IMG/VR virus record: IMGVR_UViG_3300013800_000004
Location: 1 to 64,000 of that record
Origin: a virus
Lineage: Duplodnaviria; Heunggongvirae; Uroviricota; Caudoviricetes
Strand: one strand, 5' to 3'
DNA length: 64,000 bases
The notes beneath the pieces were generated by a model. That model saw only the letters and a program-made list of their open reading frames with translations. It ran no database searches and was not told the DNA's origin. Made by a program: the position numbers and the translations under genes. Positions 9,884 to 64,000 of the stretch are shown one piece after another. Within the stretch, counting starts at the first letter, position 1. Every line of letters begins with the position of its first letter.

Positions 9884-10035
9884 AACGGTAGGGCCCCGTC
9901 AACTTCCAAATCCTCGTCACCCTCATCTACGGGCCGAAGGGGTTGGGGGGAGAGCGGGAATGGCGGAAGCTGTTCACGACTACAAGCACCCGAGATGCTC
10001 TCGCGGCTCAACTGACTCAGGGGCAATTTCCAACG

Positions 10036-10088
10036 CCAAGTACGATTTCGGTTGCGCACCCCAACCCGAGTGAGTAAGCTCTCCCTCG
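10036..10088 (+). repeat. Imperfect direct repeat R1 (about 52 nt), 5' flank of the tRNA cluster
   Basis: CCAAGTACGATTTCGGTTGCGCACCCCAACCCGAGTGAGTAAGCTCTCCC. It shares an exact 13-mer and about 65% identity with R2. Confidence 0.35.
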
Positions 10089-10186
10089 CCGTCATGAACC
10101 GCTCGCACCAACATCGACATCAGTATTGATCGCCGGGGGTCTCCACGGAGACCTTCCGGCTGGTCCTGAGTCTGTGTAAGAGTGCC

Positions 10187-10272
10187 GGAGCGTTGTGGGC
10201 GAGTGGGAAGCCCGCTGGCTGTAAACCAGAAGACCCAACAGGTCGGAGAAGGTTCGATTCCTTCACGCTTCA
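10187..10272 (+). tRNA. tRNA-Tyr (anticodon GTA), class II with a long variable arm
   Basis: Acceptor GGAGCGT/ACGCTTC, T-arm GAAGG-TTCGATT-CCTTC, and a canonical anticodon loop CTGTAAA (identical to E. coli Tyr). The D-arm parse is imperfect (one extra nt). Confidence 0.55.
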
Positions 10273-10280
10273 CTGTTTCC

Positions 10281-10366
10281 GCATCGGTGGCCGAATGGCA
10301 AGGCGGCGGGCCGTACACCCGCACCCCTGTAGTGGGGGGACGGTGGTTCGATTCCATCACGATGCA
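10281..10366 (+). tRNA. Class II tRNA-like gene, anticodon apparently GTA, with an atypical loop CCGTACA (C33, C37); possibly a degenerate Tyr copy.
   Basis: Acceptor GCATCGG/ACGATGC (7-66 G·A), D-arm TGGCCGAATGGCAAGGC, anticodon stem GCGGG/CCCGC, long variable stem CCCC…GGGG, T-arm GGTGG-TTCGATT-CCATC. Confidence 0.4.
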
Positions 10367-10379
10367 CTGTTTCATTCAC

Positions 10380-10452
10380 GTTGGGGTTAGCACAGTGGTT
10401 AGTGCGCCGGGCCGTGGCCCCGGATACGCGAGTTCGATCCTCGTACCTCAAC
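10380..10452 (+). tRNA. tRNA-His (anticodon GTG) with encoded G-1 and discriminator C73
   Basis: G-1 then TTGGGGT/ACCTCAA acceptor, D-stem GCAC/GTGC, anticodon stem CCGGG/CCCGG, loop CCGTGGC (C33 unusual), T-arm GCGAG-TTCGATC-CTCGT. Confidence 0.55.
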
Positions 10453-10495
10453 CCCAAGCACCCCGACCCTGAAGAGGGTCGATGAAATCCACCAC

Positions 10496-10547
10496 CAAGT
10501 ACGATTTTCAGATTGGTGGTCCCCAAGGTGCGTAAGAGCCCCCGCTG
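10496..10547 (+). repeat. Imperfect direct repeat R2, 3' flank of the tRNA cluster; it contains a GTGCGTAAG class-1-like core
   Basis: CCAAGTACGATTTTCAGATTGGTGGTCCCCAAGGTGCGTAAGAGCCCCC. Confidence 0.35.
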
Positions 10548-10617
10548 GCACGGTGAGCCGCCCGACCAATCGTAGACGGGAGGCCCCGACCACCACCTGT
10601 AAAAGGAGACTGTCATC

Positions 10618-11355
10618 ATGAGCCTCAAGTTGCACCAGTTGCTTGCCGTCGAGAAGACCATCAAGGCGGACGCCGCCAAGGCCCTCACGGACCTGTACCA
10701 CCGTATCGACAAGGGGAGCCTCCTCTCGGGCATCGCCCGCAGCTACCGCCCCCTCACGGACGACGGGGAGCGCCTCCCCCCGGAGAGCACCCTCCTCCAG
10801 CTTCGCGTGGAGCAGGAGATTCCCCCGGTGCTGGCGACCCTCGTCACCCTCTACGACACGATGCTCCGTAAGGAGCACGCCAACCTCCGGGCGAAGGCCG
10901 ACGTGGTCATCGACGGCACGGTGATCCTCTCCGACGTGCCCGTCTGCGCCCTCCTCTTCCTGGAGAAGCAGACCACGGACCTCAAGGCTTTCATCCAGCG
11001 GCTCCCGACGCTGGACCCGAGCGAGACGTGGGCCCACGACCCCGCCCAGAACTGCTGGGCGACGGCGCCCAACGAGACGGCTCGCACCAAGAAGGTGCCC
11101 GTGGTGCTCACCAGGGCCCAGGCCACGGACAAGCACCCGGCCCAGACGGAGCTCGTCCACGAGGACCGGGTGGTGGGCTACTGGTCCACGACCAAGTTCA
11201 GCGGGGCCATCTCGGCTGAGCGCAAGGCGACCCTCATCGCCCGCATCGGCAAGCTCTCCGCGGCCATCAAGGTCGCCCGCGAGGGCGCCAACGCGGTCCC
11301 CGTCGGGGAGCAGAAGATGGGCGAGGTCATCCTGAACTACCTGTTCGGGGCCTGA
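10618..11355 (+). CDS. Hypothetical protein (245 aa)
   Basis: ATG with AAAAGGAGA SD. Protein-like composition; the antisense ORF 10399..11415 is an R/G/D-rich artefact. Confidence 0.6.
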   Translation: MSLKLHQLLAVEKTIKADAAKALTDLYHRIDKGSLLSGIARSYRPLTDDGERLPPESTLLQLRVEQEIPPVLATLVTLYDTMLRKEHANLRAKADVVIDGTVILSDVPVCALLFLEKQTTDLKAFIQRLPTLDPSETWAHDPAQNCWATAPNETARTKKVPVVLTRAQATDKHPAQTELVHEDRVVGYWSTTKFSGAISAERKATLIARIGKLSAAIKVAREGANAVPVGEQKMGEVILNYLFGA

Positions 11356-11369
11356 ACAACGATTTTCCT

Positions 11370-11393
11370 CCCGTGAGGTGATCACCTCACGGG
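11370..11393. terminator. Perfect 24-bp palindrome CCCGTGAGGTGATCACCTCACGGG downstream of 10618..11355; a terminator hairpin or a dimeric-regulator operator
   Basis: 12 bp plus 12 bp exact palindrome with no U-tract. Confidence 0.35.
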
Positions 11394-11879
11394 TAGGGTC
11401 CAGATGTGACAGCACTGGTGTCTGTGTAAAACCAAGGACGGAAAGCCTAAATTTGCAGGTTCGACTCCTGCCCCTCCCAATCTACGGGAGGGTAGCCGAA
11501 TGTTCGGGTAGCCGAATGGCAGAGGCAAAGTCTCTCCGATCCCATCAGCATCAACACCTCAGATTATCACACAAAGCAACAAGGAGAACCCAAGCCTCAC
11601 ATCAACTGCCATCCCCCGATACTTTGCGAATGCTGGTGCAACTCCAGCCCGCCACTCCAAGCGCATGACCCCGTGAGCGTGAATTTGGAGTGGTGGTGGT
11701 CTAATCGTAAGGCGCGCAGACCTAAGACTGAGGGGGTGGATTCAAATGCCGGTGAGGCAAGGTATAGCTCCGAGACATCAGGTCTTACCAACCTGAACTA
11801 CGAATAGAGGCCCTGGCTTAGGATACAAGCTGGGGCTTCGCCTATTTGGGGGCGGTGAAACCCAGGCATCTGAGCTTGG
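11394..11879 (+). ncRNA. About 490-nt non-coding region with locally lower GC (about 48-55%). It contains a tRNA-like 3' element (T-arm GCAGG-TTCGACT-CCTGC plus a CCCTCCC-A acceptor strand at about 11455-11479) but no complete cloverleaf that I could fold; candidate structured RNA of unknown type.
   Basis: No ORF of 60 aa or more with protein-like composition. Contains a GGTTCGA T-loop consensus and a duplicated GGGTAGCCGAATG. Confidence 0.3.
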
Positions 11880-11906
11880 GTGTTTTGTCTATGCCCTCCG
11901 TGGGGC

Positions 11907-12962
11907 ATGGCACTCTCTGCGTCTCGGGTTGCTTCCAGGTACCTGCTTTCTCGGGAGTGGGGAGACCTTGATAGGCTTTTCGCGTCCTACAACAAGGCCC
12001 TGGCTGAGTTGGGTCTGAACGTCGCGCAAGAGAAATCGAGGGCCCGACCCAACTCCCTCATCCTCAAGCACTACTTCGCCCCGGTGGTGAGCACGGGGAG
12101 GGTACTCGCCGCATGGGCGGTCGAGACCAGGACCATTCCCGATGGGAAAGCCAAGGCCCTGGAGTTGGCGGCGCGGTTGATGGGGCTGGTTCGTATCCCC
12201 TCGGACATCATCCGGTGGTACGAGACCAATCTCCCCAAGCTGGAGTTCCTGCGAGAGACAATCCGTTGGAAGGAGCGTTCGGCTGAACCTTCTGGGGGTC
12301 TGGGGCTCACCACAGTGGGGCCGTTCAAGGTCCACAACACCATCGGGGCCAAAGAGAAGCAACTCAAAGAGATTCAGACCCTGGTGAAAGCTGCCGTGAA
12401 GGCGATCACCCCGGTGATGGACTTCAAGAAGGTTCTCTACGGTGACGTGTTCGTGGTGGGCCAGCTTCGACAGTCCCGCACGGTTGCGTGGTACTCCGTC
12501 CAAGAGGATCAAGTGTACCTCAGGAACCTCGCCAAGAAAGGCATTGACGATCTCGCGAGCCTCATCCATGAACTGGGGCATCGGTACTGGTTCAAGTTCG
12601 CCAGTGCGGGCATGAAGAGGAACATCTCCGGCTTGTTCTACAATCTCGCGTCGGATGTCCGGCGGGTGCCCGTCCCCGTTCTCAAGGCTGGGGACATCCT
12701 CCCGTTGAACCTCAAGGGGGAGCTCGCCCCACGGGTCATTACCAAGGTGACTCCGCTGTACTACGAGCTCGGGGATGGGGTCATGGTCAAGGTCCATGAC
12801 GTGGAAGGCATCCTCAAGCGCAAGGCTGTGGTGGGGAAGCTGTTCCCCTCTGCGTACTCCATGAAGAACGATGAAGAGTTCTTCGCAGAGTGTTTCTCGT
12901 TCTACGTTCTCGGGAAGCTGCCTGCGGGGCTGGTCCCTGAGTTTGAGAAGGCCCTCAAGTGA
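11907..12962 (+). CDS. ImmA/IrrE-like (M78) zinc metallopeptidase-domain protein (352 aa; alternative GTG start at 11880)
   Basis: HEXXH as SLIHELGHRYW plus a downstream NDEEFFAECFSFYVL (E-x-x-A-E third-ligand pattern of ImmA/IrrE). Confidence 0.55.
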   Translation: MALSASRVASRYLLSREWGDLDRLFASYNKALAELGLNVAQEKSRARPNSLILKHYFAPVVSTGRVLAAWAVETRTIPDGKAKALELAARLMGLVRIPSDIIRWYETNLPKLEFLRETIRWKERSAEPSGGLGLTTVGPFKVHNTIGAKEKQLKEIQTLVKAAVKAITPVMDFKKVLYGDVFVVGQLRQSRTVAWYSVQEDQVYLRNLAKKGIDDLASLIHELGHRYWFKFASAGMKRNISGLFYNLASDVRRVPVPVLKAGDILPLNLKGELAPRVITKVTPLYYELGDGVMVKVHDVEGILKRKAVVGKLFPSAYSMKNDEEFFAECFSFYVLGKLPAGLVPEFEKALK

Positions 12963-13813
12963 ACTCCCTTCGCTCTCGCACCATCAGGTTGGCCCACGCC
13001 AATCCAGAACTCCGACCCGTCCTCCTCCCGCTCATCAGGGAGGCGTCACAGCCCAAGGGTGTGATGACGGTTTCGGGCCCGTTCCGCATGTACATCCCAC
13101 CCGGGCTCTCGGGTCTCCAGAGCAGTCTCCAGGACACTCTGGGGACGGTGTGGGCCCTGTACAAGAATGCAGGCCTCTCCCTGGGGTCAGGCCCCATCGC
13201 TGTGGCCCTTGGTGGGAGGGTGGAGTCGCTCTACGACGTGTCCGGGAACTACGTGCTCATGACCACACATCACATCAGGAACCCCAAGAGCACGGTGTTG
13301 ATCCACGAGATGGCCCACTGGTATCACTACAACAAAGTCCCAGGCGGGGTGTCCAATCCCAAGGTGAAGGCCAAGTACCAGTGGGCACTGGCGTCCCTCG
13401 CACCGAGGAAGTCTGGTGTGGTGAAGGGCATGACCTACGAGAAGATCGGGTGGGACAACCCCTACACCAAAGACATCCCATACACCCGGATCTACAAGTT
13501 GGTGTCTGTCACGAAGACTAAGTCCACGGTTGAGCTCCAAAACCCCTCGGAGTTCGACAAGAAGCATCGCATGAACGCCCTCCGCGAGGTGCTCCCGACT
13601 TCCTACTTGGAGCAGTTGCTCAACCCTGGCGGATTGGTGACAGACGCTCATGGTGTGTCACACCTTGAGGGCGGGATTTCCCCCTGGGTGCCTACTGAGT
13701 ACGCCAAGACCAACGAGCGGGAGTGGTTCGCAGAGCTTGTGACCCCCCATGTTCTTCACCCCACGAGCACCGACCCTGAAGTGAGAGCTTGGCTGGACAG
13801 TCTCGCCCCGTGA
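12959..13813 (+). CDS. ImmA/IrrE-like zinc metallopeptidase-domain protein carrying a conserved N-terminal leader MNSLRSRTIRLAHANPELRPVLLPLIREAS
   Basis: GTG start overlapping the previous stop (GTGA). VLIHEMAHWYHY plus NEREWFAELVTPHVL. The N-terminal 30 aa are shared with 24549..25274. Confidence 0.55.
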   Translation: MNSLRSRTIRLAHANPELRPVLLPLIREASQPKGVMTVSGPFRMYIPPGLSGLQSSLQDTLGTVWALYKNAGLSLGSGPIAVALGGRVESLYDVSGNYVLMTTHHIRNPKSTVLIHEMAHWYHYNKVPGGVSNPKVKAKYQWALASLAPRKSGVVKGMTYEKIGWDNPYTKDIPYTRIYKLVSVTKTKSTVELQNPSEFDKKHRMNALREVLPTSYLEQLLNPGGLVTDAHGVSHLEGGISPWVPTEYAKTNEREWFAELVTPHVLHPTSTDPEVRAWLDSLAP

Positions 13814-53700: not shown

Positions 53701-55183
53701 TGAGACCCCCCTTGAACAACCCTTCGGGGCTCTGAACCTGTACGCAGGGAGCGCAACCGCGATCTCTCCAGGGGACGGTGGCGGGAGTATCTCGTCGCTG
53801 TCATTCTGGGCACGGTACAACCTCCTTGGGTCGGAGCTCACCGTCTCGACTGCCTACCTCGACACGTTCGGGAGGTTGGTCTCTTCCCTCAACCCTGTGT
53901 ACATGACAGGCGGGGCCCTCACCGACTACGTGCACCGGGGGGACTTCGTTTCCAGGGCTTTCAAGGACTCACTGGCCCCGACACTTCCAACCTTCGGGCA
54001 CATCGTCGAGGACTACACCTACAACGGCTACCGCTACGACTTCCTGTCGCTCATGGCCCTTGTCCCCGGGGGTGCAACCTACGTGGGGACGGCGACGGCC
54101 AACATCGCCACCCAGGGTGAAGTCACGGTGGCACTGGCGTACAGCCTCATCCCGTACGGCGCATCCATCGTCGATGTGGTCTCCGTCAACGGAGACCTGA
54201 CCAAGAACGGGCTGTTCCTGGTGTACTCCACGGATGGTGCGGCCCACATCTACCTCCGTGGGTTGAACGACACCCTCCCTGTCGGGCTCGCCCCGGGGGA
54301 CAGCATCACGTTCCGGCTCTACGCCTACGAGTCTCCAGGTCGGCATTCCACGGGCAAGTACCTGAACTCTGGCGCGTCCCCTGCCACGCAGACCAGCACG
54401 CACACACTCGGCGTTGGGTTGGACGTGGATTCCGTGGGCCTTGTGTTTGCGGGCCCGGATCGTGTGGCTGGGGGGGCAGACCGCCACGCCTACCGTGTGA
54501 CCACAGCGGTCTCGGGAGGTGCCGTGACGCCCTCCAACCAGGAGGTCGCATCCCTGGATGTGGGGGGGTACCACAAGTCCAAGGACTACCTCTACAACTC
54601 CTCAACTTCAATCACAAAGGCCATCAACCCGCTGACGTTCCATGGGTGGAACGCCAGTGGTGTTGCGGTGTGGGCCTTTGCCTCTGCACCCTTGTCTCAA
54701 TGGCAAGCGACGGGGCACCTCCACACCCTGTATGTCCCGTTGGTGTTGCCGCGTTCGAGTGCCCGTCTCAACTCGGGGGGCACTCGAACTCATCGGACGA
54801 GGCTTTCAACGGTCGTCATCATGGGGGAGTTCTTCAACAGCGGCGGCGCCCCTGGGGACCTCGCATACGTTGTCATCCACAAGGTGCAAAACACCCCAGG
54901 GACGCCGCCCACTAGGTCGGACACCCTGCTGTTCTTGGCGCAGCCCCCGGGCCCGTTCGTCTGGGCCACTACCAGCGTCCTCCCCGTGGTGGCAGGCGGA
55001 GACACCTACTACATCAACGTGGCATCTGACGTTGCGGGGGCTGCGGTGTACATCGACGACACCGAAGACTACTCCTACTACGTTGAGATCGTATCCAACA
55101 ACGGCGGCGGAGGTGTTGCTTTCCACGACATCGTGTACGGTGTTCAAATGGTATACGACGACCCCGGCCCCCGCAACTTCTGA
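50786..55183 (+). CDS. Giant structural protein (1465 aa), probably tail fiber or baseplate
   Basis: GGAGAG SD. β-rich T/G/S/V/A composition. The antisense ORF 51452..52927 is an artefact. Confidence 0.65.
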   Translation: MPTDLNILKKAFQNAASTSEATKAWDEPFTRRESTHAEQVLPAPTLPSDVGGWVASSGTPYVTVESVGGSTYLTQQGGAAPTRTYYETRPGRSGFNDVDFVPYNWGTNRFGNKGGALLGHPISWEVVGPTGKSPYTHWQWSVNTATNTLTLEAGVLSQLFTTVPPHVAPATIPTVADAYGLSALPNGGLYVLVEISGSEASNLLLAPANALTPTDPRTSQFELFRVAALPVGQDLVLESSKPLTDYFTAVGVNDKIKSITLIQPKVTRLASIPLSLNGTTQQNQVFVFLPPERAANSEYMPPYNGSGLCPDWTVNGNFDITGTIPTGSPTDYGTPNLLPVPQPLATNLAGTLSVAPTFANQWEVLVTYSGTFTAGQIVRVHTVTQDSITADQVGQCLGWFEIQNVAGAAPSTLTLARVPEVNSLTGEVFYGYGPVGVVADKIRVDLYDNVGTIFTDPVLNTSKVVAARLDHLIDPKVIDTSFRSGATSNPPGPAVFNTVSGSNPGNLTDLGFRVVLFPAKDLGGATIGPDFDNPITGNTVVLNPALPPSGQFIEVDYSAGVLYLSHPPVPGVGCAVAPNGIIADPTANPRNEVVLYAACVPYSREPSQRGTGAQVRTTRVGGEFGTHDAVDVYGERLVCTPDPSTYGPLRTSLLLTPLSVRPPPSGWFQLGEVTTGTKPQFVSLSGPNYYGWFDRAIDSLYGIGELAPYVITEQTRVVFPKGPTPRSASDSDGARGGSKRTPFLNFRGTRTTVAPDGSVVISPVATLDDAYRANDPTTPGIGRIITVDGGAIEAQPDATAGGDVFNASFRVNTKGTTPGNQVGFDFLGDDPAAGSDSYAGFIDRRAFTPATAATTLTSNFSCDVAAGVVSLNPLGADWFWEPTGYKKTLLSFLLDLIEIEGVTYVVAGFSGATGHDITILNLDGTVPTVAYGSGLYTGATATVYRVKFFTSRGDTGTPALNFNSWFSGQARSETPLEQPFGALNLYAGSATAISPGDGGGSISSLSFWARYNLLGSELTVSTAYLDTFGRLVSSLNPVYMTGGALTDYVHRGDFVSRAFKDSLAPTLPTFGHIVEDYTYNGYRYDFLSLMALVPGGATYVGTATANIATQGEVTVALAYSLIPYGASIVDVVSVNGDLTKNGLFLVYSTDGAAHIYLRGLNDTLPVGLAPGDSITFRLYAYESPGRHSTGKYLNSGASPATQTSTHTLGVGLDVDSVGLVFAGPDRVAGGADRHAYRVTTAVSGGAVTPSNQEVASLDVGGYHKSKDYLYNSSTSITKAINPLTFHGWNASGVAVWAFASAPLSQWQATGHLHTLYVPLVLPRSSARLNSGGTRTHRTRLSTVVIMGEFFNSGGAPGDLAYVVIHKVQNTPGTPPTRSDTLLFLAQPPGPFVWATTSVLPVVAGGDTYYINVASDVAGAAVYIDDTEDYSYYVEIVSNNGGGGVAFHDIVYGVQMVYDDPGPRNF

Positions 55184-56466: not shown

Positions 56467-59400
56467 ATGCCTGAGTATTTCGGTCCTGGTGTCTCCCGAG
56501 CGTTGTCCGCCCTCGCACAGCAGTTCACCACTGTTGTCTGGCAGGCGGACCGCCCACCGCTGGACAGTGAGCTCAACCTCATGTCTCAAGTGGACACGGA
56601 GAGCCTCGCCCAGATGGTGCGCTCGCAGGTTCACTCGGGGTTCTTCCTCGACCCCACCCGTTGCGACGCGGATTTCCAGACCAACCCGCTGAATGTCAAT
56701 CAGTTCATCCTGGCTCCCCCCGCCGTGGTGGAGTGGGTCACGGAGGTGTCTCCCACCCTTTATGCCGCGGTGAACGGTTGGGTTCTCCCCATCGCGGGGG
56801 CTTTCATGTCCGAGGGTGGAGGTGGAGACGACCCGGCCAACCGGGTACGACTGTTCCCGCCTCCGACGACGGACTCCCGGACGGACTTCGTGTTCCTGGA
56901 GGTGTGGCAGGCCCTGGTGTCTGCCAACCCCTCCGCGGTGAACAAGCCCAGTGCGAGCGAGGTCTACAAGTACGGGAACACTCAGTACGGGGGCACAAAC
57001 CTCACGGACGAGATCGAAGACCCCGCCGTGGGGTTTGAGACTACCAAGAGGGTCCAGCTTCAGTACCGGTTCCGGGTGGTGGGCAGTGGTGACGGCGGTG
57101 GCGTCTCCGTGGACCTCGTCAACTACCCCGACGGCCTCACCGACCCGAACGTCCTGGGTCAGGGCACTTCGGCGGCACCTGTGGGTGGCTTGACGTTCTC
57201 CAACATGCGGAGCGAGCTCAACGACCCGTCCCTGTGGCGCGCGGGCGACGGCAACCCTGCCAACGCCCTTGGGACGGTGGATGGGTTCGTGTACGCCATC
57301 CCGGTATGTGCGGTGTTCCGCCGCAACACCGCCGCCTTCACGGCACTCGCTGCGGGCGGCAACCCCAACCAGAACGGCGGGACGGAGAGGACTCCCAGCA
57401 CTCATGGTCTGGCGGACCCCCAGACGGGCGCGCGGCTGCTCGCACAGGCGAGCTTGTCTGCCGACCTGAATGAGACGCTCACCGGGTACGTGAAGCTCAA
57501 CAACTACTCGACCTCTGGGTTGGACGACCCCAACCTGTTCCCGGTGGGTGTCCTTCGCCGGTACTTGGTGATTGGCGAGGGGCTTGACCAGGAGATTATC
57601 TCCATCAACCCGAACACCGATCCGGGCGGTCTGGGCCTTGACTCTGTGTTTATCGAGGCGGGTGTGGGCCGCGGGCGTGGTGGGACCATGGCCAAGTTCC
57701 ACGTTCGCGCCACCCCCGTCTCGCTGTACAGCGTGCGGGCCGACGGCCTCTACGCCGACCAAGTAGCCCCGACGGACATTCTGGACATGCGCCGGTCCAT
57801 CAACTTCGGGGACTGGGACTACAACCGGCTTCTCCAGAAGGGTGTCGCAGCCCTCGTCCAGAACAACCTCCGCACGGCCTTCAAGCAGGCGGGCACTGGC
57901 GGGGACACTGTGGGGGTGACCACCACGGAGGTGTCGTTCTTCCAGCAACCCACCTCAGGTATCCACCTCAACCATGTGGCTGAGGTGGACGGGACCGATG
58001 GAATCCGCACGGTGTGGAGCGACAGCGCCGCCGTGCAGAGTGACGTCACCGTCGTCCTGGACAACGAAGCCGCCTTGGACGCCAACAACTACACGGCTAC
58101 GACGTTCGATGCGGCCATCGGTTCATCCTGGACGATGGGTGCAGGGTTCACGCCCAACGGGTTCTTGAACTTCACTGGCACCCAGGGGTGGTGCAACGGC
58201 TCCGTCGTGTTCGTGAACATCGGCGGCAAAACTGGCACCGAGGGGGCTCGCAGGGGAATCCTGAACGGGCAGCGTGCGGTTCGCTTCATCGCCCCCTACG
58301 AGGCATGGAAGCCCGGTGACAGCGATCTTGAGTCGCATCACCCCTGGCAGCTTCGGTTTATCGGCGGCAAGAGTGGGAACTCCGACTCGGGTTCAACGCC
58401 TGAGTCGAACGGTTACCGTGCCGGGTTCATGACCACCCCCAACGGGATGGTGGGCAGTCCCCTCGCCCCGGACCCTGAGCACCCTGGGCCGATGTTCCCG
58501 GTGGCAAGCACCAACTTCGAGCGGCCCTTCATCGTGCTGGGTGGAGTTCTCAACCCGGTGCTTCGCTACACCGGGGTGCCCGCCACTCCTGCCAATCTCG
58601 CCCCGGATTCGCTTACGAGGGCCGAGGTGAACATCGCGGGAATCGACTGGGATACCCTGGTGGAGAGCACACTCCCCCTTGGCCGGGATGGAAAGACCCT
58701 GCGTGACTACCTGACCAATGATGGCCAGGACTTCACGGGAATGTCGTCCAAGCTGTACTTGGTGATCTACGGTGACGCCGCCAGCCGAGATAACAACGGG
58801 GCATTCCAGGTCATCGGTGCAGGCACCGCCATGCGGAAGTCGCTGCTTGGTGGCCCGTTCACGCAGAACGTGTCGCTGGTCGCCACGCACTTGGTGGTGC
58901 GGCCACTGTCCAAGGACTACGACGGATTCACGAACACGGGCAACAACGTCACCATTGAGTTCCGTTCCCAGGAAATCAACGCTGAGGATGACAACGGGAG
59001 TGACAACGCCCCCCACGGCCTCGCCGTGGTGTTCACCGACCTTGCGGGGTCAGCTGATCTCCCCTGGGGGCAAGTATCACTCCCGCTGGAGACTTCGGGC
59101 TCGCCCGCGCGGCTCATCCCAGTGGCATCCAAGGCCACCCTGACTATGGACCTGCTGTGGTCCCCGAGCCATGGGGCCAGCCATCGGGTTCCTGATCAGG
59201 TGTTCCGTTTCGGGGTTGAGAACCCCCCGGCGGTGCTCTGCCGCTCTCCGGTGTCTGTCATCGACCCGGTGTTTGTCACGGACACTGCGTACCCCGACGG
59301 GGACGTGGTGTACCCCGCAACCCAGGTCCAACTCTGGAACCGGCTCCCCTCCAATGGACTTGGAGCCCCGTATGCGGACGCATACGGGGGTGTCGTGGTG

Positions 59401-61893
59401 GGCAACACAGAGCAGGACCGAGAGACTGAACTGTTCCTGGACCCTGGTTCCAAGACGGTGGTGTTCCGACCGTTTACCCTGAAGTCGGCCATTCTCAAGC
59501 AGTTCGACGAGACGGCACCCAACCCTGGCCCCACTCTTGTGGGATCATCCGTCTACCCGGTGTTTGTCCCCTTCCCCAAGGACGGGAACAACTTGTTCAC
59601 TGCGGGGCTCACGGGCGGTTACGCGGTGCCCCCGGAGTTCATGCCTCGCTTCGGGCGTCAGGACATCCCGTACCACATCTCCACGGGAGTCTCAGACCCG
59701 CTGTACCCGGGCATCAACCACCTCTTCGCGGACGGGTCCGACGCGACCGGGTCGGTGTTCTACATTGTGGGTGGGGTGGACAACGCGGGACCGGGCAACT
59801 CGGTCAAGTCCATTCTGTTCGACACGACCATCACCTACGGCATGAACGGGTCGGTGACCACCCCCTCGAACGTGGCCTATGGTGCCCGCAAGATGAGCGA
59901 TGACGCGGTGGTGTCGTCCGACCTCGGGGTAGGACTCCGTGGCGTCGAGCTTCCCCCGTATCTCGGGATCGCGCGGCTGTACGGCGTGTACGAGCGCGCG
60001 GACTTCGTCGCCCACACGGATGCGTCCAACGTCGGTGCGTTCCAGAACACCAACCGCACCCAGTCCATTGTGGGGGTGGGGGGCCGTCCGCCGGTCAACC
60101 TCCTTCGCACGGACGCGACCAAGCAGACTCTGTTCATCCGCCAAGGTGGGGCCAACGACTACACGAATCAGAGCGATTCTCACACCTACGTGGTCCCAAG
60201 CGATGCCATCGACATCACCCGGATTCCGGGGTACGGGTGGGGGCAGGAGTTCCAGGACTTCGACTACGTGGTGGAGTGTGTGGTCTTCGGGTTCTCCGAG
60301 GGGTTCATCAACAAGAACAACTACGTGCTCGCTCGGCGGCACAGCGGCAAAGCGACGCTGGTGTCAGATAGCTCGTCCCTGGAGCTCACCGATGTGAGCA
60401 TGATCCTTCCGGCACCGGCACCCACCTCGGTGAGCCCCTACGAGGTGTACAACCGCACGGTGTACCAGGGCGACCCGTACATGACCCGCGGGGGGGCATC
60501 GGCACAGCCTGCGGATTACGCTGCCCGATACGGGCAGATCCCTCAGGTGAACGCAGCCCAACTGAGCACCTCCATCAACCAGACGGGGGTGGCCACCCCG
60601 AACCCCCGCGCCCTTGAGGTGCTGGCAACGATGGACTTCTACACGACTCTTGGGACGGGCAAGATGGGGGGCCCCATGGCTCCAGACACCTTGCTTGACT
60701 GTGGGTTCACGGCTCCAAACGCCACGGGGTCTCGCATCCCGTCGTCGATCTTCGACCTCCCGTGGCGCATTGTGCCCCGTGCGTTCACGGCTGGGCAGAA
60801 CGATGACGTCCCGCACGCTTCGGCGTCCATCCAGATCCTGAGCTACGCCACGGCGTACGCCAACTCCATGACCGTGACGATCCGTGGTGTGGTGCTCACC
60901 CCGGACGGTGGGGCAGTGACCAACGCCGACTACGCAACCATCGTCGCCGCGGAAATCAACGACCCAAACAAGTTCCTCACCCCATACGTCTACGCAACGG
61001 CCAATGGCAACGTGGTCACTCTGGTGGCTCGCGAGCCCGGCGCCGCTGGGAACAACCTCACGGTGTCCCTTGCGTTCACGACCACGTTCACTGGAAACAT
61101 GGCCACCACCGCAAATGTGCGGAGCGGAAACTCCCTCCCCCGCACCATGGTGAACTTCTCGGGTGGGGTGGACGTGCCGGTCAACGGCGGGAACGGTGAC
61201 TCCACCGTGTCCCTCACGGGCATGTCTGAGCGGCTGCCCTTGGGCATCCTGGTGTCGGACTCGGATCTCATCGCGGAGAACATCCTTGGGGACGGGGCCA
61301 CCTCCCTCCGGTCATACCAAGGTGGCCTCCGGTCGGTCTACCAGGACGTCCCCCTTACCAGCAACGGGTTCGAGTACAGCCGGTTCCTGGGGGAGCCCGG
61401 CACCGAGCTCTTGATGACCGACGGGTCAATCCTTCAGTACGTCCCGTACAACCCGCCCACTACTCCAGGCGGCACCAGGGCGTTCCGCCTCTACCGTGGT
61501 GGTGGCGCGACGTTTGTTCTGTCGGGGACCGCGCCCGGCGGCCCTGTCACCTGGGCGGGGGACTCGTTCTCGGCGTCCGTCCAGCCGGTGCTCAAGGGTG
61601 CCGTGCTGGCATGCAAGGCCATCCTGGTTCGGAACTACCACGAGAAGGCTTTCGGCACTGTGCGCTCGCAGGGTGACGAGATTCAGATGGTGGTACTCAC
61701 CCAGGCCCTTTATGGGACGACCACGACCACGGCGGACGGGCTCACCCTCAGGGGGCTCATCTCCCCCACGGGCTACGGAGAGGGCTACGCGGCGGCAGAC
61801 CGCTACCGCATCCCGGGTCTCCCGATGGACCGGGGCCGCACCCGCACCACGCGGGATCCTGCAACCCCCCCCGCCCCGTACTACACGCCGTGA
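56467..61893 (+). CDS. Giant structural protein (1808 aa), probably tail fiber or baseplate
   Basis: ATG ORF with β-rich composition, followed by a complex hairpin. Confidence 0.65.
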   Translation: MPEYFGPGVSRALSALAQQFTTVVWQADRPPLDSELNLMSQVDTESLAQMVRSQVHSGFFLDPTRCDADFQTNPLNVNQFILAPPAVVEWVTEVSPTLYAAVNGWVLPIAGAFMSEGGGGDDPANRVRLFPPPTTDSRTDFVFLEVWQALVSANPSAVNKPSASEVYKYGNTQYGGTNLTDEIEDPAVGFETTKRVQLQYRFRVVGSGDGGGVSVDLVNYPDGLTDPNVLGQGTSAAPVGGLTFSNMRSELNDPSLWRAGDGNPANALGTVDGFVYAIPVCAVFRRNTAAFTALAAGGNPNQNGGTERTPSTHGLADPQTGARLLAQASLSADLNETLTGYVKLNNYSTSGLDDPNLFPVGVLRRYLVIGEGLDQEIISINPNTDPGGLGLDSVFIEAGVGRGRGGTMAKFHVRATPVSLYSVRADGLYADQVAPTDILDMRRSINFGDWDYNRLLQKGVAALVQNNLRTAFKQAGTGGDTVGVTTTEVSFFQQPTSGIHLNHVAEVDGTDGIRTVWSDSAAVQSDVTVVLDNEAALDANNYTATTFDAAIGSSWTMGAGFTPNGFLNFTGTQGWCNGSVVFVNIGGKTGTEGARRGILNGQRAVRFIAPYEAWKPGDSDLESHHPWQLRFIGGKSGNSDSGSTPESNGYRAGFMTTPNGMVGSPLAPDPEHPGPMFPVASTNFERPFIVLGGVLNPVLRYTGVPATPANLAPDSLTRAEVNIAGIDWDTLVESTLPLGRDGKTLRDYLTNDGQDFTGMSSKLYLVIYGDAASRDNNGAFQVIGAGTAMRKSLLGGPFTQNVSLVATHLVVRPLSKDYDGFTNTGNNVTIEFRSQEINAEDDNGSDNAPHGLAVVFTDLAGSADLPWGQVSLPLETSGSPARLIPVASKATLTMDLLWSPSHGASHRVPDQVFRFGVENPPAVLCRSPVSVIDPVFVTDTAYPDGDVVYPATQVQLWNRLPSNGLGAPYADAYGGVVVGNTEQDRETELFLDPGSKTVVFRPFTLKSAILKQFDETAPNPGPTLVGSSVYPVFVPFPKDGNNLFTAGLTGGYAVPPEFMPRFGRQDIPYHISTGVSDPLYPGINHLFADGSDATGSVFYIVGGVDNAGPGNSVKSILFDTTITYGMNGSVTTPSNVAYGARKMSDDAVVSSDLGVGLRGVELPPYLGIARLYGVYERADFVAHTDASNVGAFQNTNRTQSIVGVGGRPPVNLLRTDATKQTLFIRQGGANDYTNQSDSHTYVVPSDAIDITRIPGYGWGQEFQDFDYVVECVVFGFSEGFINKNNYVLARRHSGKATLVSDSSSLELTDVSMILPAPAPTSVSPYEVYNRTVYQGDPYMTRGGASAQPADYAARYGQIPQVNAAQLSTSINQTGVATPNPRALEVLATMDFYTTLGTGKMGGPMAPDTLLDCGFTAPNATGSRIPSSIFDLPWRIVPRAFTAGQNDDVPHASASIQILSYATAYANSMTVTIRGVVLTPDGGAVTNADYATIVAAEINDPNKFLTPYVYATANGNVVTLVAREPGAAGNNLTVSLAFTTTFTGNMATTANVRSGNSLPRTMVNFSGGVDVPVNGGNGDSTVSLTGMSERLPLGILVSDSDLIAENILGDGATSLRSYQGGLRSVYQDVPLTSNGFEYSRFLGEPGTELLMTDGSILQYVPYNPPTTPGGTRAFRLYRGGGATFVLSGTAPGGPVTWAGDSFSASVQPVLKGAVLACKAILVRNYHEKAFGTVRSQGDEIQMVVLTQALYGTTTTTADGLTLRGLISPTGYGEGYAAADRYRIPGLPMDRGRTRTTRDPATPPAPYYTP

Positions 61894-61904
61894 ACCACAG
61901 GGAC

Positions 61905-61967
61905 GACCCAGAGGGCGAGCGCCGGGCTGACCAGGACAAGGCAGTCCTGGGGCTCGCCCTCTGGGTC
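61905..61967 (+). terminator. Complex hairpin after the 1808-aa gene
   Basis: GACCCAGAGGGCGAGC…GCTCGCCCTCTGGGTC 16-bp stem enclosing a nested CCAGGA…TCCTGG stem. Confidence 0.4.
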
Positions 61968-62013
61968 GCAGTTCTGATTGCCTACTGGTTCGGGTGGCTC
62001 TAGCGGTGACATC

Positions 62014-62030: not shown

Positions 62031-64000
62031 ATGTCAGAATCCGACGACGAGATTGTCGCATCTCTCAGTGAGGGCCCCGCCGACATCAGCCCCACACACG
62101 CGAAACTCCTGAAGATCCGGGAGCGCAAGGATCTCGAAGCCCGCCCCTCTTCGTACATGAGGGAGTCCTTTACGGGGTTCGATGGAGTTGAACGCCCGCT
62201 CAAGCTCAGGTACTACCAAGTTCAGGGAGTGATGCACCTCCTGGCATGTACCCGTTTCCTTCTTGGGGACGACACGGGCTTGGGGAAGTGTGTCAAATTT
62301 GACACACTGGTCCAGACAGGCCGGGGACTGTTCCAACTTGGTGAGCTCGGGCCGTGGCAGACCATGGCCCCGGACACGTTCGCCCCCATGACTACGTCCA
62401 CGGAGGTGTGGACCGGGTGGGAATGGGCCACCGTCAAACGATTCTACTTCGGGGGGGTGAAGCCGACGCGAACGATCACCACGAGACGGGGGTACGAGAT
62501 CACTGGGACGTATGTCCATCCCCTGTGGTCGCGTCGGGTGGATGGGACTGAGGGATTTGTTCAGACGAGTGGCCTCAGGTTGGGAGATTTTCTGTCGTTG
62601 GACAGAAGCCCCTCACTCTTCCCCGAAGAGGAACCGACGCTCCCAGTCTTGGAGCAATGTGACACCCATCAGAACACCATCCACTACACGCTGCCCGCCA
62701 CGCTCTCTCCAAACCTCTCGGCATTCTTGGCCTACGTGGTGGCCGAGGGTAACAGGGCTCGGGGTGCTGTAAGCATCACTCAGGACAAGAACCTCAACCC
62801 CGAGACTCACGATCACATCCGGCAATTGGCCGAAACCCTGTTCGGGTGGGATGGGAACCACAGTTGTGCCAACCGTGATACGCGGATCATCATCTCCAGT
62901 GTGCTCATCAAGTCCTACCTGGAGGGTCTAGGGGTGGCCCCTGTGCTGTCGGCACAGAAGTCCGTGCCTTGGCCCATTTTCCGTGGCACCAGAGAGTCTG
63001 TGGCTGCGTTCCTCCGGGCCTTCTTCGACAGTGAGGGTTCGGTCGGTCAGGGCGTCGTGGAGGTGTCCAGCGCGTCTGAGCAACTGCTTCGGGAGGTGCA
63101 GGTTCTCCTGCTCAGGTTCGGGGTCGTTTGCACCCGCAGCCCGAAGAAGGTCAAGGGCTACGACCAGACCTACTGGCGTCTGGCCCTGTGTGGGGACGAC
63201 CTCAGGGCGTTCAAGGAACACATTGGGTTCCTGACCCCACGTAAGCAGCAAGCCCTGGACGATGCTGCATCCAAGGAGTCCAACACCAACCTGGACGTGG
63301 TACCTCACGCACGGGAGGTGGTGGAGGCTCTTCGGGCGGACATCCTGAAGGCCGTGTCTTTGCGTGGCCCCAACGGGGAACGTAAGGGGTCAGGGCTCAA
63401 GCGATTTGGGGTGTCCTTCGAGAAGACCCTGAACAACATTCGCAACGCAGGCAGGAACCCCACCTACAACTTCCTCGTGAAGTTGGGTGCCATTGCCGAG
63501 TTCGTAGGGGCGGACAAGGGCCCGGCCTACCGGGCTGTGTGTGACCTCGTCCACAACCACTTCTTCTACGACCCCATCGTGTCTATCACGGAGGGGGAAG
63601 AGCCTGTCATGGACATCGAGGTGGACCATCCCCGTCACAGTTTCGTGGCGGGCGGGTTCGTGAACCACAACACGCTCATGACCATTTCGGCGTTGACGTA
63701 CCTCTGGGAGCGCAACCCGGACCAGAAGGTCATTATCCTCACGTCCAAATCCGCAGTGGAGCAGTGGGCAGGGGAGTTCCGCAAGTTCACCAAGGGGATC
63801 ACCACGTTCGTGGCTCGGGGGTCTCCCGCACAGCGCCGGAAGGTCCGCGAGAAGTTCCTCGCCGCCACGGGCCCCTCGGTGTTGGTGATGGGGTACCGGA
63901 CGGCGGTCCAGGACTTTAGCGAGATCCAGGGCGAAGAGGGGTACGTGCTGGTGACCGATGAGGCGGCAGCCTACAAGAACCACCAGACGCAGGTCCACCA
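62031..64000 (+). CDS. SNF2-family helicase/ATPase, 3'-truncated at the window edge, interrupted by an intein in the P-loop. Absent from the ORF track.
   Basis: I translated the frame manually with no stops from 62031 to 64000. N-extein …LRYYQVQGVMHLLACTRFLLGDDTGLGK | intein | TLMTISALTYLWERNPDQKVIILTSKSAVEQWAGEFRKF… reconstitutes SNF2 motif I (GLGKT). ATG preceded by GGGCGTAACGTCGGAC. Confidence 0.6.
   Translation, partial: MSESDDEIVASLSEGPADISPTHAKLLKIRERKDLEARPSSYMRESFTGFDGVERPLKLRYYQVQGVMHLLACTRFLLGDDTGLGKCVKFDTLVQTGRGLFQLGELGPWQTMAPDTFAPMTTSTEVWTGWEWATVKRFYFGGVKPTRTITTRRGYEITGTYVHPLWSRRVDGTEGFVQTSGLRLGDFLSLDRSPSLFPEEEPTLPVLEQCDTHQNTIHYTLPATLSPNLSAFLAYVVAEGNRARGAVSITQDKNLNPETHDHIRQLAETLFGWDGNHSCANRDTRIIISSVLIKSYLEGLGVAPVLSAQKSVPWPIFRGTRESVAAFLRAFFDSEGSVGQGVVEVSSASEQLLREVQVLLLRFGVVCTRSPKKVKGYDQTYWRLALCGDDLRAFKEHIGFLTPRKQQALDDAASKESNTNLDVVPHAREVVEALRADILKAVSLRGPNGERKGSGLKRFGVSFEKTLNNIRNAGRNPTYNFLVKLGAIAEFVGADKGPAYRAVCDLVHNHFFYDPIVSITEGEEPVMDIEVDHPRHSFVAGGFVNHNTLMTISALTYLWERNPDQKVIILTSKSAVEQWAGEFRKFTKGITTFVARGSPAQRRKVREKFLAATGPSVLVMGYRTAVQDFSEIQGEEGYVLVTDEAAAYKNHQTQVH
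62289..63671 (+). mobile_element. Intein (461 aa) with a LAGLIDADG (dodecapeptide) homing-endonuclease domain, inserted between K and T of the helicase Walker A motif
   Basis: Starts CVKFDTLV (block A). TGTYVHPLW (block B). Two LAGLIDADG-like motifs, FLAYVVAEGN and FLRAFFDSEGS. Ends …GGFVNHN followed by Thr (+1). Confidence 0.6.

Follow-up and report, generated by a model that had tools for sequence, protein, structure and literature searches.

A predicted class 1 intein with a LAGLIDADG endonuclease in the Walker A motif of an SNF2-family ATPase gene, most likely from a very large bacteriophage

At the 3' edge of the window (i.e., the whole stretch of 64,000 nucleotides analysed here), a long reading frame encodes an ATP-binding loop that is interrupted by several hundred codons, and the question arises as to what this interruption is, what becomes of the interrupted protein, and how the interruption is maintained among related genomes. 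The reading favoured here, and considered very probable, is that of a canonical intein with a LAGLIDADG endonuclease, which is situated in the Walker A motif of an SNF2 gene of a large phage, splices out of its precursor, and then homes.

Frame +1 from 62031 comprises 656 codons without a stop up to the window edge (translation of 62031-64000, + strand). Its first start codon is the ATG at 62031, located after an in-frame TGA at 62007-62009, and its N-terminus, MSESDDEIV, is common to the homologues P0001, P0106, and P0109. The initial annotation had described this frame as open for more than 650 codons and had attributed its absence from the supplied ORF list to truncation at the edge; both statements hold, the tool leaving out ORFs that extend past the source's end. 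All of the peptides named there are likewise present, i.e., ...FLLGDDTGLGK at the end of the N-extein and, following the Thr of the C-extein, TLMTISALTYLWERNP...KVIILTSKSAVEQWAGEFRKF. Motif Ia (LTSK) and motif II (DEAA) of the C-extein are also situated inside the window.

Concerning the identity of the host protein, the spliced window fragment matches the Pfam profile SNF2-rel_dom at 1e-18, with further matches to ResIII and DEAD, and an intein-free homologue (P0106) matches STH1/ISWI/SNF2 structures (E about 1e-40) as well as phrog_62 'DNA helicase' (5e-91). The host gene is accordingly predicted to encode an SNF2-family ATPase (SF2 helicase-like), in agreement with the SNF2-type host proposed before. 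The rest of the gene is supplied by a sibling contig (L002, positions 10001-13030), which is 98.9% identical to the window and encodes a complete protein of 1009 aa (P0001), from which the 656 residues encoded in the window differ at one position. After splicing in silico, P0001 exhibits GLGKT, LTSK, DEAA, LTATL, AAAEAINL, and QILGRMIRIGS (motifs I, Ia, II, III, V, and VI). The last three of these lie beyond the window and are provided by the sibling contig alone; a Pfam Helicase_C match is precomputed for P0001, its C-lobe lying outside the window. The initial annotation had made its helicase assignment dependent on motifs II-VI in the continuation of the gene, and these are found in the protein encoded by L002.

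The insert is situated between Lys and Thr of Walker A (GLGK/T, the slash marking the insertion point), starts with the codon TGT (Cys) at 62289, and ends with AAC at 63669-63671 (...HN), directly followed by ACG (Thr) at 63672, with the reading frame unbroken across both junctions (Table 1). Removing positions 62289-63671 in silico lifts the score against SNF2-rel_dom from 44.9 to 67.8 bits and lets the alignment reach profile position 1. Moreover, a natural intein-free allele exists (P0106 on contig L003), which encodes 548 aa (= 1009 - 461) with 97% extein identity. Its DNA is colinear with the window on both flanks of a gap of exactly 1383 nt, such that the boundaries of the insert are exact. 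The earlier proposal that excision of precisely this segment regenerates GLGKT is thus confirmed by the empty allele and by the gain in Pfam score. The empty-site junction in L003 reads ...GGGCTTGGGCAAA/ACTTTGATGACC..., and the junction that the window would have after excision is a synonymous variant. The GC content of the intein is 0.604 versus 0.619 in the exteins, and its GC3 is 0.766 versus 0.849; these differences are small and were not taken as evidence of a foreign composition of the intein.

Table 1. Features of the interrupted SNF2 gene and of the spacer preceding it, in positions of the window.
Feature	Position	Strand	Remarks
Very stable hairpin	61898..61976	+	In the 137-nt spacer from an 1808-aa ORF (stop TGA 61891-61893) to the SNF2 gene
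N-extein of the predicted SNF2-family ATPase gene, 86 codons	62031..62288	+	Ends with the first four Walker A residues G-L-G-K (62277-62288)
Intein, putatively class 1, 461 codons (TGT...AAC), with predicted LAGLIDADG homing endonuclease inside	62289..63671	+	Pfam, PDB matches, empty allele, AF2, Foldseek
Block A (CVKFDTLVQTGRG)	62289..62327	+	Cys1 (62289-62291), predicted N-terminal splicing nucleophile
Block B (GYEITGTYVHPLW), TxxH = T74-Y-V-H77	62490..62528	+	H77 and P78 conserved
LAGLIDADG motif 1 (LSAFLAYVVAEGN), residues 143-155	62715..62753	+	Predicted catalytic acid Glu153; model helix 141-153
LAGLIDADG motif 2 (VAAFLRAFFDSEGS), residues 238-251	63000..63041	+	Predicted catalytic acid Glu249; model helix 235-249
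Block F (PVMDIEVDHPRHSFVAGG)	63603..63656	+	D442, H450, and G456 100% conserved; stretch aligns to the Mxe GyrA intein
Block G (FVNHN)	63657..63671	+	Penultimate His460 and terminal Asn461; His and Asn kept in homologues
C-extein, cut by the window edge	63672..64000	+	Thr+1 (ACG 63672-63674) completes Walker A GLGK-T

In class 1 inteins, by definition, the first intein residue is a nucleophile, namely Cys, Ser, or Thr (PMC5222942). Judged from its sequence, the insert in the window bears the signature of this class, i.e., Cys1, TxxH, the terminal His-Asn, Thr+1, and a precise in-frame insertion. The Cys start, the TxxH of block B (T-Y-V-H at intein residues 74-77), and the final HN followed by Thr had already been recognized in the initial annotation, and all of them are present; together with the two LAGLIDADG motifs, they far exceed what chance would produce. 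Cys1 is found in 107/107 homologues having a residue in that column, the terminal His-Asn in 108/108 homologues having a residue there, and Thr+1 in 118/118 homologues (H460-N461/T spanning 63666-63674). In the alignment of intein-bearing homologues, Cys1 and G13 are both invariant, and H77 and P78 reach 100% among the 92 complete proteins with a full-length intein; the residues adjoining Cys1, His-Asn, and Thr+1 vary freely among the homologues. At positions conserved at 90% or more, the copy in the window departs from the consensus only once (S144 versus Ala). An assignment to class 3 was rejected, as Cys1 is present and invariant and block F contains no Cys. The Pfam match to Intein_splicing (1.8e-5, 23.5-25 bits) lies below the curated cut-off of 35.8, and membership among the inteins therefore rests on the blocks, on PDB homology, and on the predicted fold. 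The sequence matches of the insert in the PDB are VMA inteins (best 7e-10) and the Mxe GyrA intein.

Within the insert, the two LAGLIDADG motifs reported in the initial annotation are corroborated by Pfam LAGLIDADG_3 (about 3e-17 to 6e-17, spanning intein residues 237-313), by homology to solved inteins, and by the predicted fold. With both helices ending in a catalytic acid, they point to a two-motif, monomeric LAGLIDADG endonuclease. In the set of 92 complete proteins considered above for H77 and P78, E153 is conserved at 99% (and is invariant in alignment A1), E249 at 90%, and F241 at 100%.

The AlphaFold (AF2) model of the intein (pLDDT 91.8, pTM 0.91) predicts a HINT fold. The top Foldseek matches are all endonuclease-bearing inteins (TliVMA at 8e-27 with TM 0.70/0.74, PhoVMA, PI-PfuI, PI-TkoII, and PI-SceI), the endonuclease core being matched in addition by I-DmoI and I-Tsp061I (TMt 0.65-0.69) and the splicing domain by the Mxe GyrA mini-intein. 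The secondary structure of the model from residue 141 to residue 301 fits a pseudo-dimeric alpha-beta-beta-alpha-beta-beta-alpha core. The model further contains an extra helical segment at residues about 330-423.

According to the mechanism proposed here, a precursor of 1009 aa would be made in which the ATP-binding loop is interrupted and ATPase activity is presumably absent; given the precise interruption of Walker A, helicase activity would have to depend on splicing. The HINT domain would assemble from its two halves (residues about 1-105 and 425-461 of the intein), and an N-S acyl shift at Cys1 would be followed by an attack of the Thr+1 hydroxyl on the thioester, resulting in a branched intermediate. 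Asn461 would then cyclise with the help of His460, and an O-N shift would join the exteins. A single ORF of 1009 codons is thus predicted to yield, upon maturation, an SNF2 ATPase of 548 aa with an intact GLGKT (spliced junction peptide ...GLGK-TLMTISALTYLWER...) and a free intein of 461 aa. The latter would act as a site-specific DNA endonuclease, cutting intein-free alleles of co-infecting relatives near ...GGGAAG/ACG..., and recombinational repair would copy the intein into the cut allele (homing).

Among 225 pooled homologues, the GLGK/T site is empty in 116, contains a full-length intein in 95, and contains a shortened or mini-intein in 14, i.e., 12 inserts of intermediate length (200-419 aa) and two mini-inteins (147-156 aa); this ratio of 116 empty to 109 occupied sites is no census, since each of the two database searches favoured one site state. 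The intein-containing query over-samples occupied alleles, and the intein-free query missed alleles of ~1000 aa whose exteins are 96% identical. An unbiased frequency of occupied and empty sites was therefore discarded as a quantity, and only the interleaving of the states can be stated. In 69 of the 225 homologues, the nearest extein relative has the opposite site state, and Fitch parsimony on the extein tree yields at least 49 gains or losses of the intein, a figure derived from a simple NJ tree that ignores recombination. P0036/P0140, P0013/P0124, and P0021/P0146 are examples of close relatives of which one has an occupied and the other an empty site. Extein and intein identities are discordant, amounting to 96% and 67%, respectively, in P0009, and to 82% and 87% in P0002. 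More than 100 independent protein clusters, drawn from different sources, exhibit this insert architecture, and the SNF2 protein has a second, independent intein site in its motif II (Walker B). Taken as a sequence pattern, the patchy spread of empty, full, decayed, and mini alleles fits the classic homing cycle.

In the comparison with the sibling contig L002, the N-extein and the intein together (1641 nt) exhibit one nucleotide difference versus 58 in the 5427 nt of the upstream ORF, and the two intein copies differ by a single synonymous change. The 101 differences between the window and L002 are clustered in few patches, and difference-free runs of at least 1.6 kb occur elsewhere as well; the near-identity of the intein hence does not point specifically to a conversion tract of recent date, and a footprint of recent homing was rejected. 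A diversity-generating retroelement behind these patches was also rejected, because the changes hit all four bases and the window contains no template-like repeat.

It might be argued that the intein is still competent for splicing while its endonuclease is already dead, such that it would be inherited vertically and decay toward a mini-intein at a late stage of the homing cycle. The shortened inserts at GLGK/T in relatives are in line with this, as is the loss of the Pfam LAGLIDADG match in P0104, P0111, and P0112. The copy in the window, however, retains both E153 and E249, agrees with the consensus at all but one of the highly conserved positions, and is of full length, with a complete endonuclease domain confidently predicted in the model; furthermore, the many invariant endonuclease residues in the 92 complete proteins argue for ongoing selection on the endonuclease. 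A dead endonuclease in the window is therefore considered unlikely. Lower still is the probability assigned to a co-option of the intein as a conditional splicing switch that would hold the SNF2 ATPase inactive until a redox, metal, or temperature signal. Such a switch has been proposed for mycobacterial DnaB inteins, and the disruption of the ATP-binding loop would make helicase activity contingent on splicing. That inteins in the P-loops of helicases can splice conditionally is documented in PMC6195587 and PMC7360933, and Novikova et al. argue for a selective retention of P-loop inteins (PMC4760082), both of which count for this reading. Against it, about half of the pooled homologues, the 97%-identical allele among them, have an empty site, and these empty alleles, together with the at least 49 changes of state, indicate that the host does not need the intein. 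In addition, the +1 residue is Thr, so that a disulfide trap between Cys1 and Cys+1 is impossible, and the five other Cys of the intein (124, 193, 281, 301, and 418) are not among the conserved positions.

That the insert is a non-splicing insertion, a pseudogene, an assembly artefact, or an intron removed at the RNA level is scarcely credible, even though the Intein_splicing match lies below its cut-off and splicing is deduced rather than observed: the frame is continuous, the architecture recurs in the independent clusters mentioned above, the splicing residues are all invariant, and the difference from the sibling intein is synonymous. Rfam, searched over the whole window at gathering thresholds, revealed no group I/II intron or other RNA family at the intein region and three tRNAs only in the entire window, by which a self-splicing intron was rejected. 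Starting from the preferred reading of an intein that splices and homes, two extensions by analogy are conceivable, namely that the endonuclease is a weapon in interference competition or that the element is mobile between P-loop hosts, but both are regarded as rather doubtful. In the interference version, cutting a rival's intein-free SNF2 allele may cripple the rival's replication module, in the manner shown for the PhiPA3 intron endonuclease, which, if true, would explain why apparently intact full-length endonucleases persist beside abundant empty alleles throughout a very broad clade. In the mobility version, the intein lineage may move between unrelated P-loop hosts, i.e., SNF2 in huge phages and DnaB/gp41 in Herelleviridae, since the Walker A coding sequence is proposed to offer a near-universal landing site.

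Concerning the genomic context, the SNF2 gene opens a block of replication genes, with a DnaB-like helicase downstream. The RNA fold of the hairpin in the spacer preceding it has an energy of -63.7 kcal/mol (z = -6.9, with 0/200 shuffles as stable); it is without a T-tract and is not called by a simple terminator scan. The hairpin probably constitutes a transcript-end or boundary element between the giant-ORF block and the replication genes. The best annotated relative is a 485-kb 'uncultured phage' (LR745208.1) with partial synteny, and 14 of the listed homologues are situated on contigs of 213-531 kb, with more from the second search. PHROG and Pfam searches of 21 large ORFs (22 window sequences including the intein segment) did not find capsid, portal, or terminase genes; the matches obtained in the ORFs of the window were a glucosaminidase/endolysin-like domain, phrog_200 'lipoprotein', DUF7487, a weak HNH, and a ROS/MucR domain. 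The assignment to phages thus rests on the relatives and not on capsid or terminase genes, and the window derives most likely from a very large bacteriophage genome.

The element clearly belongs to a known kind of selfish element, with both SNF2 hosts and P-loop sites documented for inteins, and the understanding of how inteins work is unchanged by this case. Its family documents the homing cycle of an intein in uncultured huge phages with unusual completeness, across hundreds of natural alleles: a single Walker A site occurs in the empty, full, decayed, and mini states, a further site exists in motif II, and in cultured Bacillus phages an unrelated helicase has a homologous intein at the same position of its P-loop. 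It is therefore suited to studies of intein turnover rates, of jumps between P-loops of different hosts, and of possible competition among phages. It might also provide protein and genome engineering with a new Thr+1 intein and a new LAGLIDADG specificity. For annotation, the locus illustrates a pitfall, as the helicase is missed both when edge-truncated ORFs are dropped and when the protein is labelled 'intein/homing endonuclease'.

In calling P-loop inteins typical of helicases, the initial annotation is in line with Novikova et al. 2016 (PMC4760082), who report them from helicases and other ATPases and list COG0553 HepA/SNF2 with 15 inteins in bacteria. Among very large phages, gp210 of the jumbo phage PhiPA3 is comparable as a homing endonuclease in an essential gene, for which the cutting of a co-infecting relative's allele is described as a competitive advantage in PMC11620839; gp210, however, belongs to an intron, which is removed at the RNA level, and has a different host gene, whereas the element in the window, known here from its sequence, is an intein. 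The Snf2 intein of Deinococcus radiodurans shares the SNF2/Rad54 host family, and experiments have demonstrated that it splices (Southworth & Perler 2002, cited in PMC11219805). This intein belongs to class 3, forming its branched intermediate at block F (Brace et al. 2010, as cited in PMC5222942), and is set apart by its class signature from the intein in the window with its class 1 Cys1.

The best matches, both in sequence and in fold, are the VMA inteins of Thermococcales (TliVMA and PhoVMA; 7qss/7qst) and PI-SceI (1vde), which exhibit the same arrangement of a class 1 HINT domain interrupted by a two-motif LAGLIDADG endonuclease in a P-loop NTPase. Their host, however, is the catalytic subunit of the V-type ATPase in archaea or yeast and not a phage SNF2 protein, and identity amounts to about 22%. 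The DnaB site b inteins of DnaB/gp41-type helicases share the insertion site and, in phages, a replication protein as host, this P-loop site having been described in PMC4760082. An example is the 'ATP-dependent helicase' of Bacillus phage vB_BceH_LY2 (ON366411.1), with an identical Walker A insertion (GTGK/C...SHN/T). The vB_BceH_LY2 intein is homologous to the intein in the window from end to end (25% identity, E 9e-49). A shared origin with the P-loop intein in the DnaB-like protein of the related 485-kb phage was rejected, as there is no detectable similarity. The DnaB/gp41 hosts are hexameric SF4 helicases with a RecA fold, whereas the host in the window belongs to SF2/SNF2, such that the lineage common to the window and vB_BceH_LY2 inteins is shared across unrelated P-loop hosts.

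The frame opening with the ATG at 62031, the first start codon downstream of an in-frame TGA (62007-62009), runs on the + strand to the end of the window at 64000 through 656 codons without a single stop, as the initial annotation had stated; its absence from the ORF list has the cause proposed there, as the mechanical list omits ORFs that run off the end of the source. The N-terminus, MSESDDEIV, is common to close homologues and the window gene. The N-terminal part closes with ...FLLGDDTGLGK (GLGK at 62277-62288) and passes directly into an insert, which opens with TGT (Cys) at 62289 and ends with ...GGFVNHN, the last Asn being encoded by AAC at 63669-63671. ACG (Thr, 63672) is situated directly 3' of the insert and is followed by TLMTISALTYLWERNPDQKVIILTSKSAVEQWAGEFRKF. 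All peptides quoted in the initial annotation, as well as the Cys start, the HN end and the subsequent Thr, are thus found in the translation.

Six independent lines of evidence concur in confirming the insert (62289-63671) as an intein. Pfam LAGLIDADG_3 matches its 461 aa with E 3e-17, and Intein_splicing matches weakly (E 1.8e-5; 25 bits, the curated cut-off being 35.8 bits). In sequence comparisons with solved structures, the endonuclease-bearing VMA inteins 7qss/7qsu align to the insert (7e-10) and the Mxe GyrA intein to its last 65 residues (3e-7). On the unspliced translation, SNF2-rel_dom is recognised only at residues 548-655 (44.9 bits, profile positions 31-144); without nt 62289-63671 the match begins at profile position 1 and reaches 67.8 bits, and ResIII and DEAD also exceed their cut-offs.

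A natural empty site exists in P0106, a homologue encoded on contig L003, which is 97% identical to the exteins, has a length of 548 aa (i.e., 1009 - 461) and reads uninterrupted ...GDDTGLGKTLMTISALTYLWERN... across the insertion site. The DNA of L003 aligns to the window as far as 62287 and resumes at 63678, the net insertion amounting to exactly 1383 nt, and the codon-by-codon junction is GGGAAG/TGT...AAC/ACG. This allele carries the motif I sequence GLGKT that precise excision was proposed to restore. When 120 homologues are aligned with MAFFT and only sequences with a residue in the respective column are counted, none deviates from Cys1 (107/107), from the final His-Asn pair (108/108) or from Thr+1 (118/118), and the positions just past Cys1 vary freely. 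Across the 92 complete proteins whose intein is full-length, His77 and Pro78 of block B, Asp442 and His450 of block F, and Gly456 are 100% conserved, and the LAGLIDADG acids Glu153 and Glu249 to 99% and 90%, respectively; the window copy is off consensus at just one of the positions conserved to at least 90%. Concerning the fold, the AlphaFold2 model of the intein (34-sequence alignment; mean pLDDT 91.8, pTM 0.91) has as its best Foldseek matches in the PDB exclusively endonuclease-bearing inteins, i.e., TliVMA (E 8e-27, TM 0.70/0.74), PhoVMA, PI-PfuI, PI-TkoII and PI-SceI; its splicing domain is matched by mini-inteins and its endonuclease core by I-DmoI and I-Tsp061I. Because Cys1 is present, the intein belongs to class 1 by the definition in PMC5222942; the class 3 signature is absent, as block F moreover lacks a Cys.

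An artefact, a pseudogene or an intron is excluded, given the frame open throughout, the splicing residues conserved across homologues and the lack of an intron RNA family: the RNA family scan of the whole window yielded three tRNAs and nothing else, which rules out a self-splicing intron. It is possible, but not favoured, that the intein still splices while its endonuclease is dead, since all conserved endonuclease residues are kept in the window copy. Nor is there support for a regulatory intein that splices conditionally: very close relatives do without it, Thr occupies the +1 position, and the Cys residues inside the intein lack conservation. Family scans, domain restoration, matches to solved structures, empty allele, conservation and fold bear out a LAGLIDADG intein of textbook quality, seated in Walker A of a huge-phage SNF2 ATPase, with observation and interpretation of the initial annotation both upheld.

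As the window stops inside the gene, the complete protein was taken from the sibling Logan contig L002, which shares 98.9% identity with the window across about 11.5 kb and whose 1009-aa product, P0001, differs from the window translation by one residue (P563A). Spliced in silico, P0001 exhibits motifs I (GLGKT), Ia (LTSK), II (DEAA), III (LTATL), V (AAAEAINL) and VI (QILGRMIRIGS), and the Pfam domains SNF2-rel_dom and Helicase_C. With these motifs present and the frame free of stops, neither of the two objections foreseen in the initial annotation holds. The SNF2-type host is also recovered with the intein-free homologue, residues 59-513 of which match the structures of yeast STH1, ISWI, SNF2 and DDM1 (E 1e-40 to 1e-36), and which is matched by PHROG 62 'DNA helicase' (5e-91).

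The differences between the window and L002 are bunched in three short patches within the giant ORFs, at 55058-55157 (37 differences including a 9-nt indel), 57703-57962 (29) and 60012-60095 (21), separated by difference-free runs of at least 1.6 kb; to judge from this arrangement, they look like mosaic recombination. A diversity-generating retroelement was rejected as their source, as every base type is altered and no template repeat is found in the window. In L003, an extra 289-aa gene (2029-2898; no Pfam match) directly follows the intein-free SNF2 gene; it is missing from the same place in L002, which constitutes another indel between otherwise colinear relatives.

Features of the window upstream of the interrupted SNF2 gene
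Feature	Position	Strand	Remarks
tRNA cluster	10187-10456	+	two tRNA-Tyr (GTA), one tRNA-His (GTG)
Giant ORF, 1758 aa	26853-32129	+	no Pfam or PHROG match
ORF, 420 aa	32206-33468	+	ROS/MucR zinc-finger DNA-binding domain (PF05443, E 5e-13, residues 56-107); C-terminus with weak PHROG HNH-endonuclease match
Giant ORF, 1149 aa	37679-41128	+	no Pfam or PHROG match
Giant ORF, 1731 aa	44495-49690	+	glucosaminidase/endolysin-like domain, residues 997-1111
Giant ORF, 1465 aa	50786-55183	+	no Pfam or PHROG match
Giant ORF, 1808 aa	56467-61893	+	no Pfam or PHROG match
Hairpin in spacer between 1808-aa ORF and SNF2 gene	61898-61976		-63.7 kcal/mol, z = -6.9

Five giant ORFs share one 35-kb stretch upstream of the SNF2 gene, with the 420-aa ORF among them, and the endolysin-like domain suggests that a huge phage may carry their products in its virion or eject them. 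The 137-nt spacer following this block contains an exceptionally stable hairpin (perfect 17-bp outer stem plus inner stem), which was not called by a simple terminator scan because it has no T-tract. In L002, the SNF2 gene is followed by small ORFs and by genes for an HNH protein and a DnaB-like helicase (Pfam DnaB_C, 1e-14); with spacer and hairpin upstream, it is therefore the first gene of a replication-type block. The nearest record in the phage collection, the 485-kb 'uncultured phage' LR745208.1, possesses an intein-containing SNF2 orthologue (60% identical) in partial synteny: upstream the correspondence covers the C-terminus of the 1808-aa ORF, and downstream the DnaB-like gene. At least 14 listed homologues sit on contigs of 213-531 kb, and further ones came from the intein-free query. 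From this relationship and these contigs we infer a huge phage as the origin of the window; the window ORFs scanned matched no capsid, portal or terminase family (Pfam/PHROG). The three-tRNA cluster would fit a large phage genome.

Among 225 near-complete proteins, pooled from the matches of an intein-containing and an intein-free query and, both searches being biased, indicative rather than a census, the Walker A site is empty in 116, whereas 95 carry full-length (at least 420 aa) and 12 intermediate (200-419 aa) inteins, and two carry mini-inteins (147 and 156 aa). The site states are interleaved: for 69 of the 225 the nearest extein relative shows the opposite state, with extein identities of 97% (P0001/P0106), 96% (P0036/P0140), 95% (P0013/P0124) and 91% (P0021/P0146) in such pairs. 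Fitch parsimony on the extein NJ tree, which ignores recombination and is likewise indicative, requires at least 49 state changes, compared to 67-83 with shuffled labels. Intein and extein divergence are loosely coupled (Spearman 0.56), discordant cases being P0009 (extein 96%, intein 67%) and P0002 (82% and 87%). This pattern is that expected of a homing cycle, in which repeated invasion, endonuclease decay and loss would alternate, and the window intein is accompanied by a rich natural allele series.

A second, independent intein site of the SNF2 family lies within motif II (Walker B; ...NDE/CFDYH...LVSN/CAAYKNH...). The respective intein of roughly 373 aa carries an endonuclease of another family (Pfam LAGLIDADG_2, PF03161), with Cys+1 in place of Ala, and occurs in 7/225 proteins (P0109, P0110, P0124, P0136, P0146, P0158, P0196), in P0110 together with a P-loop mini-intein. 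In the window gene this site is empty (equivalent DEAA codons near 63950). The DnaB-like helicase of LR745208.1 (locus L001, 11866-14673) contains its own P-loop intein of 438 aa (...TGGLK/CVTGG...GFITHN/SSFAM...), which is not detectably similar to the SNF2 intein and is missing from the orthologue adjoining the P0001 gene in L002 (14934-16481).

What the data show are catalytic residues, fold and the distribution of alleles; the following splicing and cleavage reactions we infer from the chemistry established for class 1 inteins and LAGLIDADG enzymes. The precursor, with its P-loop split, should be ATPase-dead; Cys1 would form a thioester, which Thr+1 would attack, Asn461 would cyclise with the assistance of His460, and an O-N shift would give the mature SNF2 protein of 548 aa, its GLGKT motif now intact. 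Thr of Walker A would be used twice, first as splicing nucleophile and afterwards within the ATP-binding loop. The freed intein would cut empty alleles in co-infecting genomes, and repair would copy the intein in.

SNF2-hosted inteins and P-loop sites are already documented, and the window element adds no new type of system to them. For COG0553 HepA/SNF2, 15 inteins are reported in bacteria (Novikova et al. 2016, PMC4760082), and P-loop insertion is recurrent (DnaB site b, MCM site a, RFC, and others; PMC4760082), in line with the initial remark that P-loop inteins are typical for helicases. Large phages, too, are noted to carry inteins in essential genes (PMC7824862, PMC7886860). A description of this huge-phage SNF2 Walker A allele was not found in the literature; several homologues are labelled 'intein/homing endonuclease' by JGI. 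The Snf2 intein of D. radiodurans, for which experimental splicing is cited in PMC11219805, likewise has a SNF2-family host; however, it is of class 3 (Brace et al. 2010, as cited in PMC5222942), whereas the window intein is of class 1. The cultured Bacillus phage vB_BceH_LY2 (Herelleviridae; ON366411.1) possesses an intein at the same Walker A K/T position (GTGK/C...SHN/T), but in a gp41/DnaB-type helicase (locus L004, 898-3642), annotated there merely as 'ATP-dependent helicase', instead of a SNF2 protein. As this 429-aa intein is homologous to that of the window over its whole length (25% identity, E 9e-49), the comparison suggests that a single intein lineage occupies the P-loops of unrelated helicase families.
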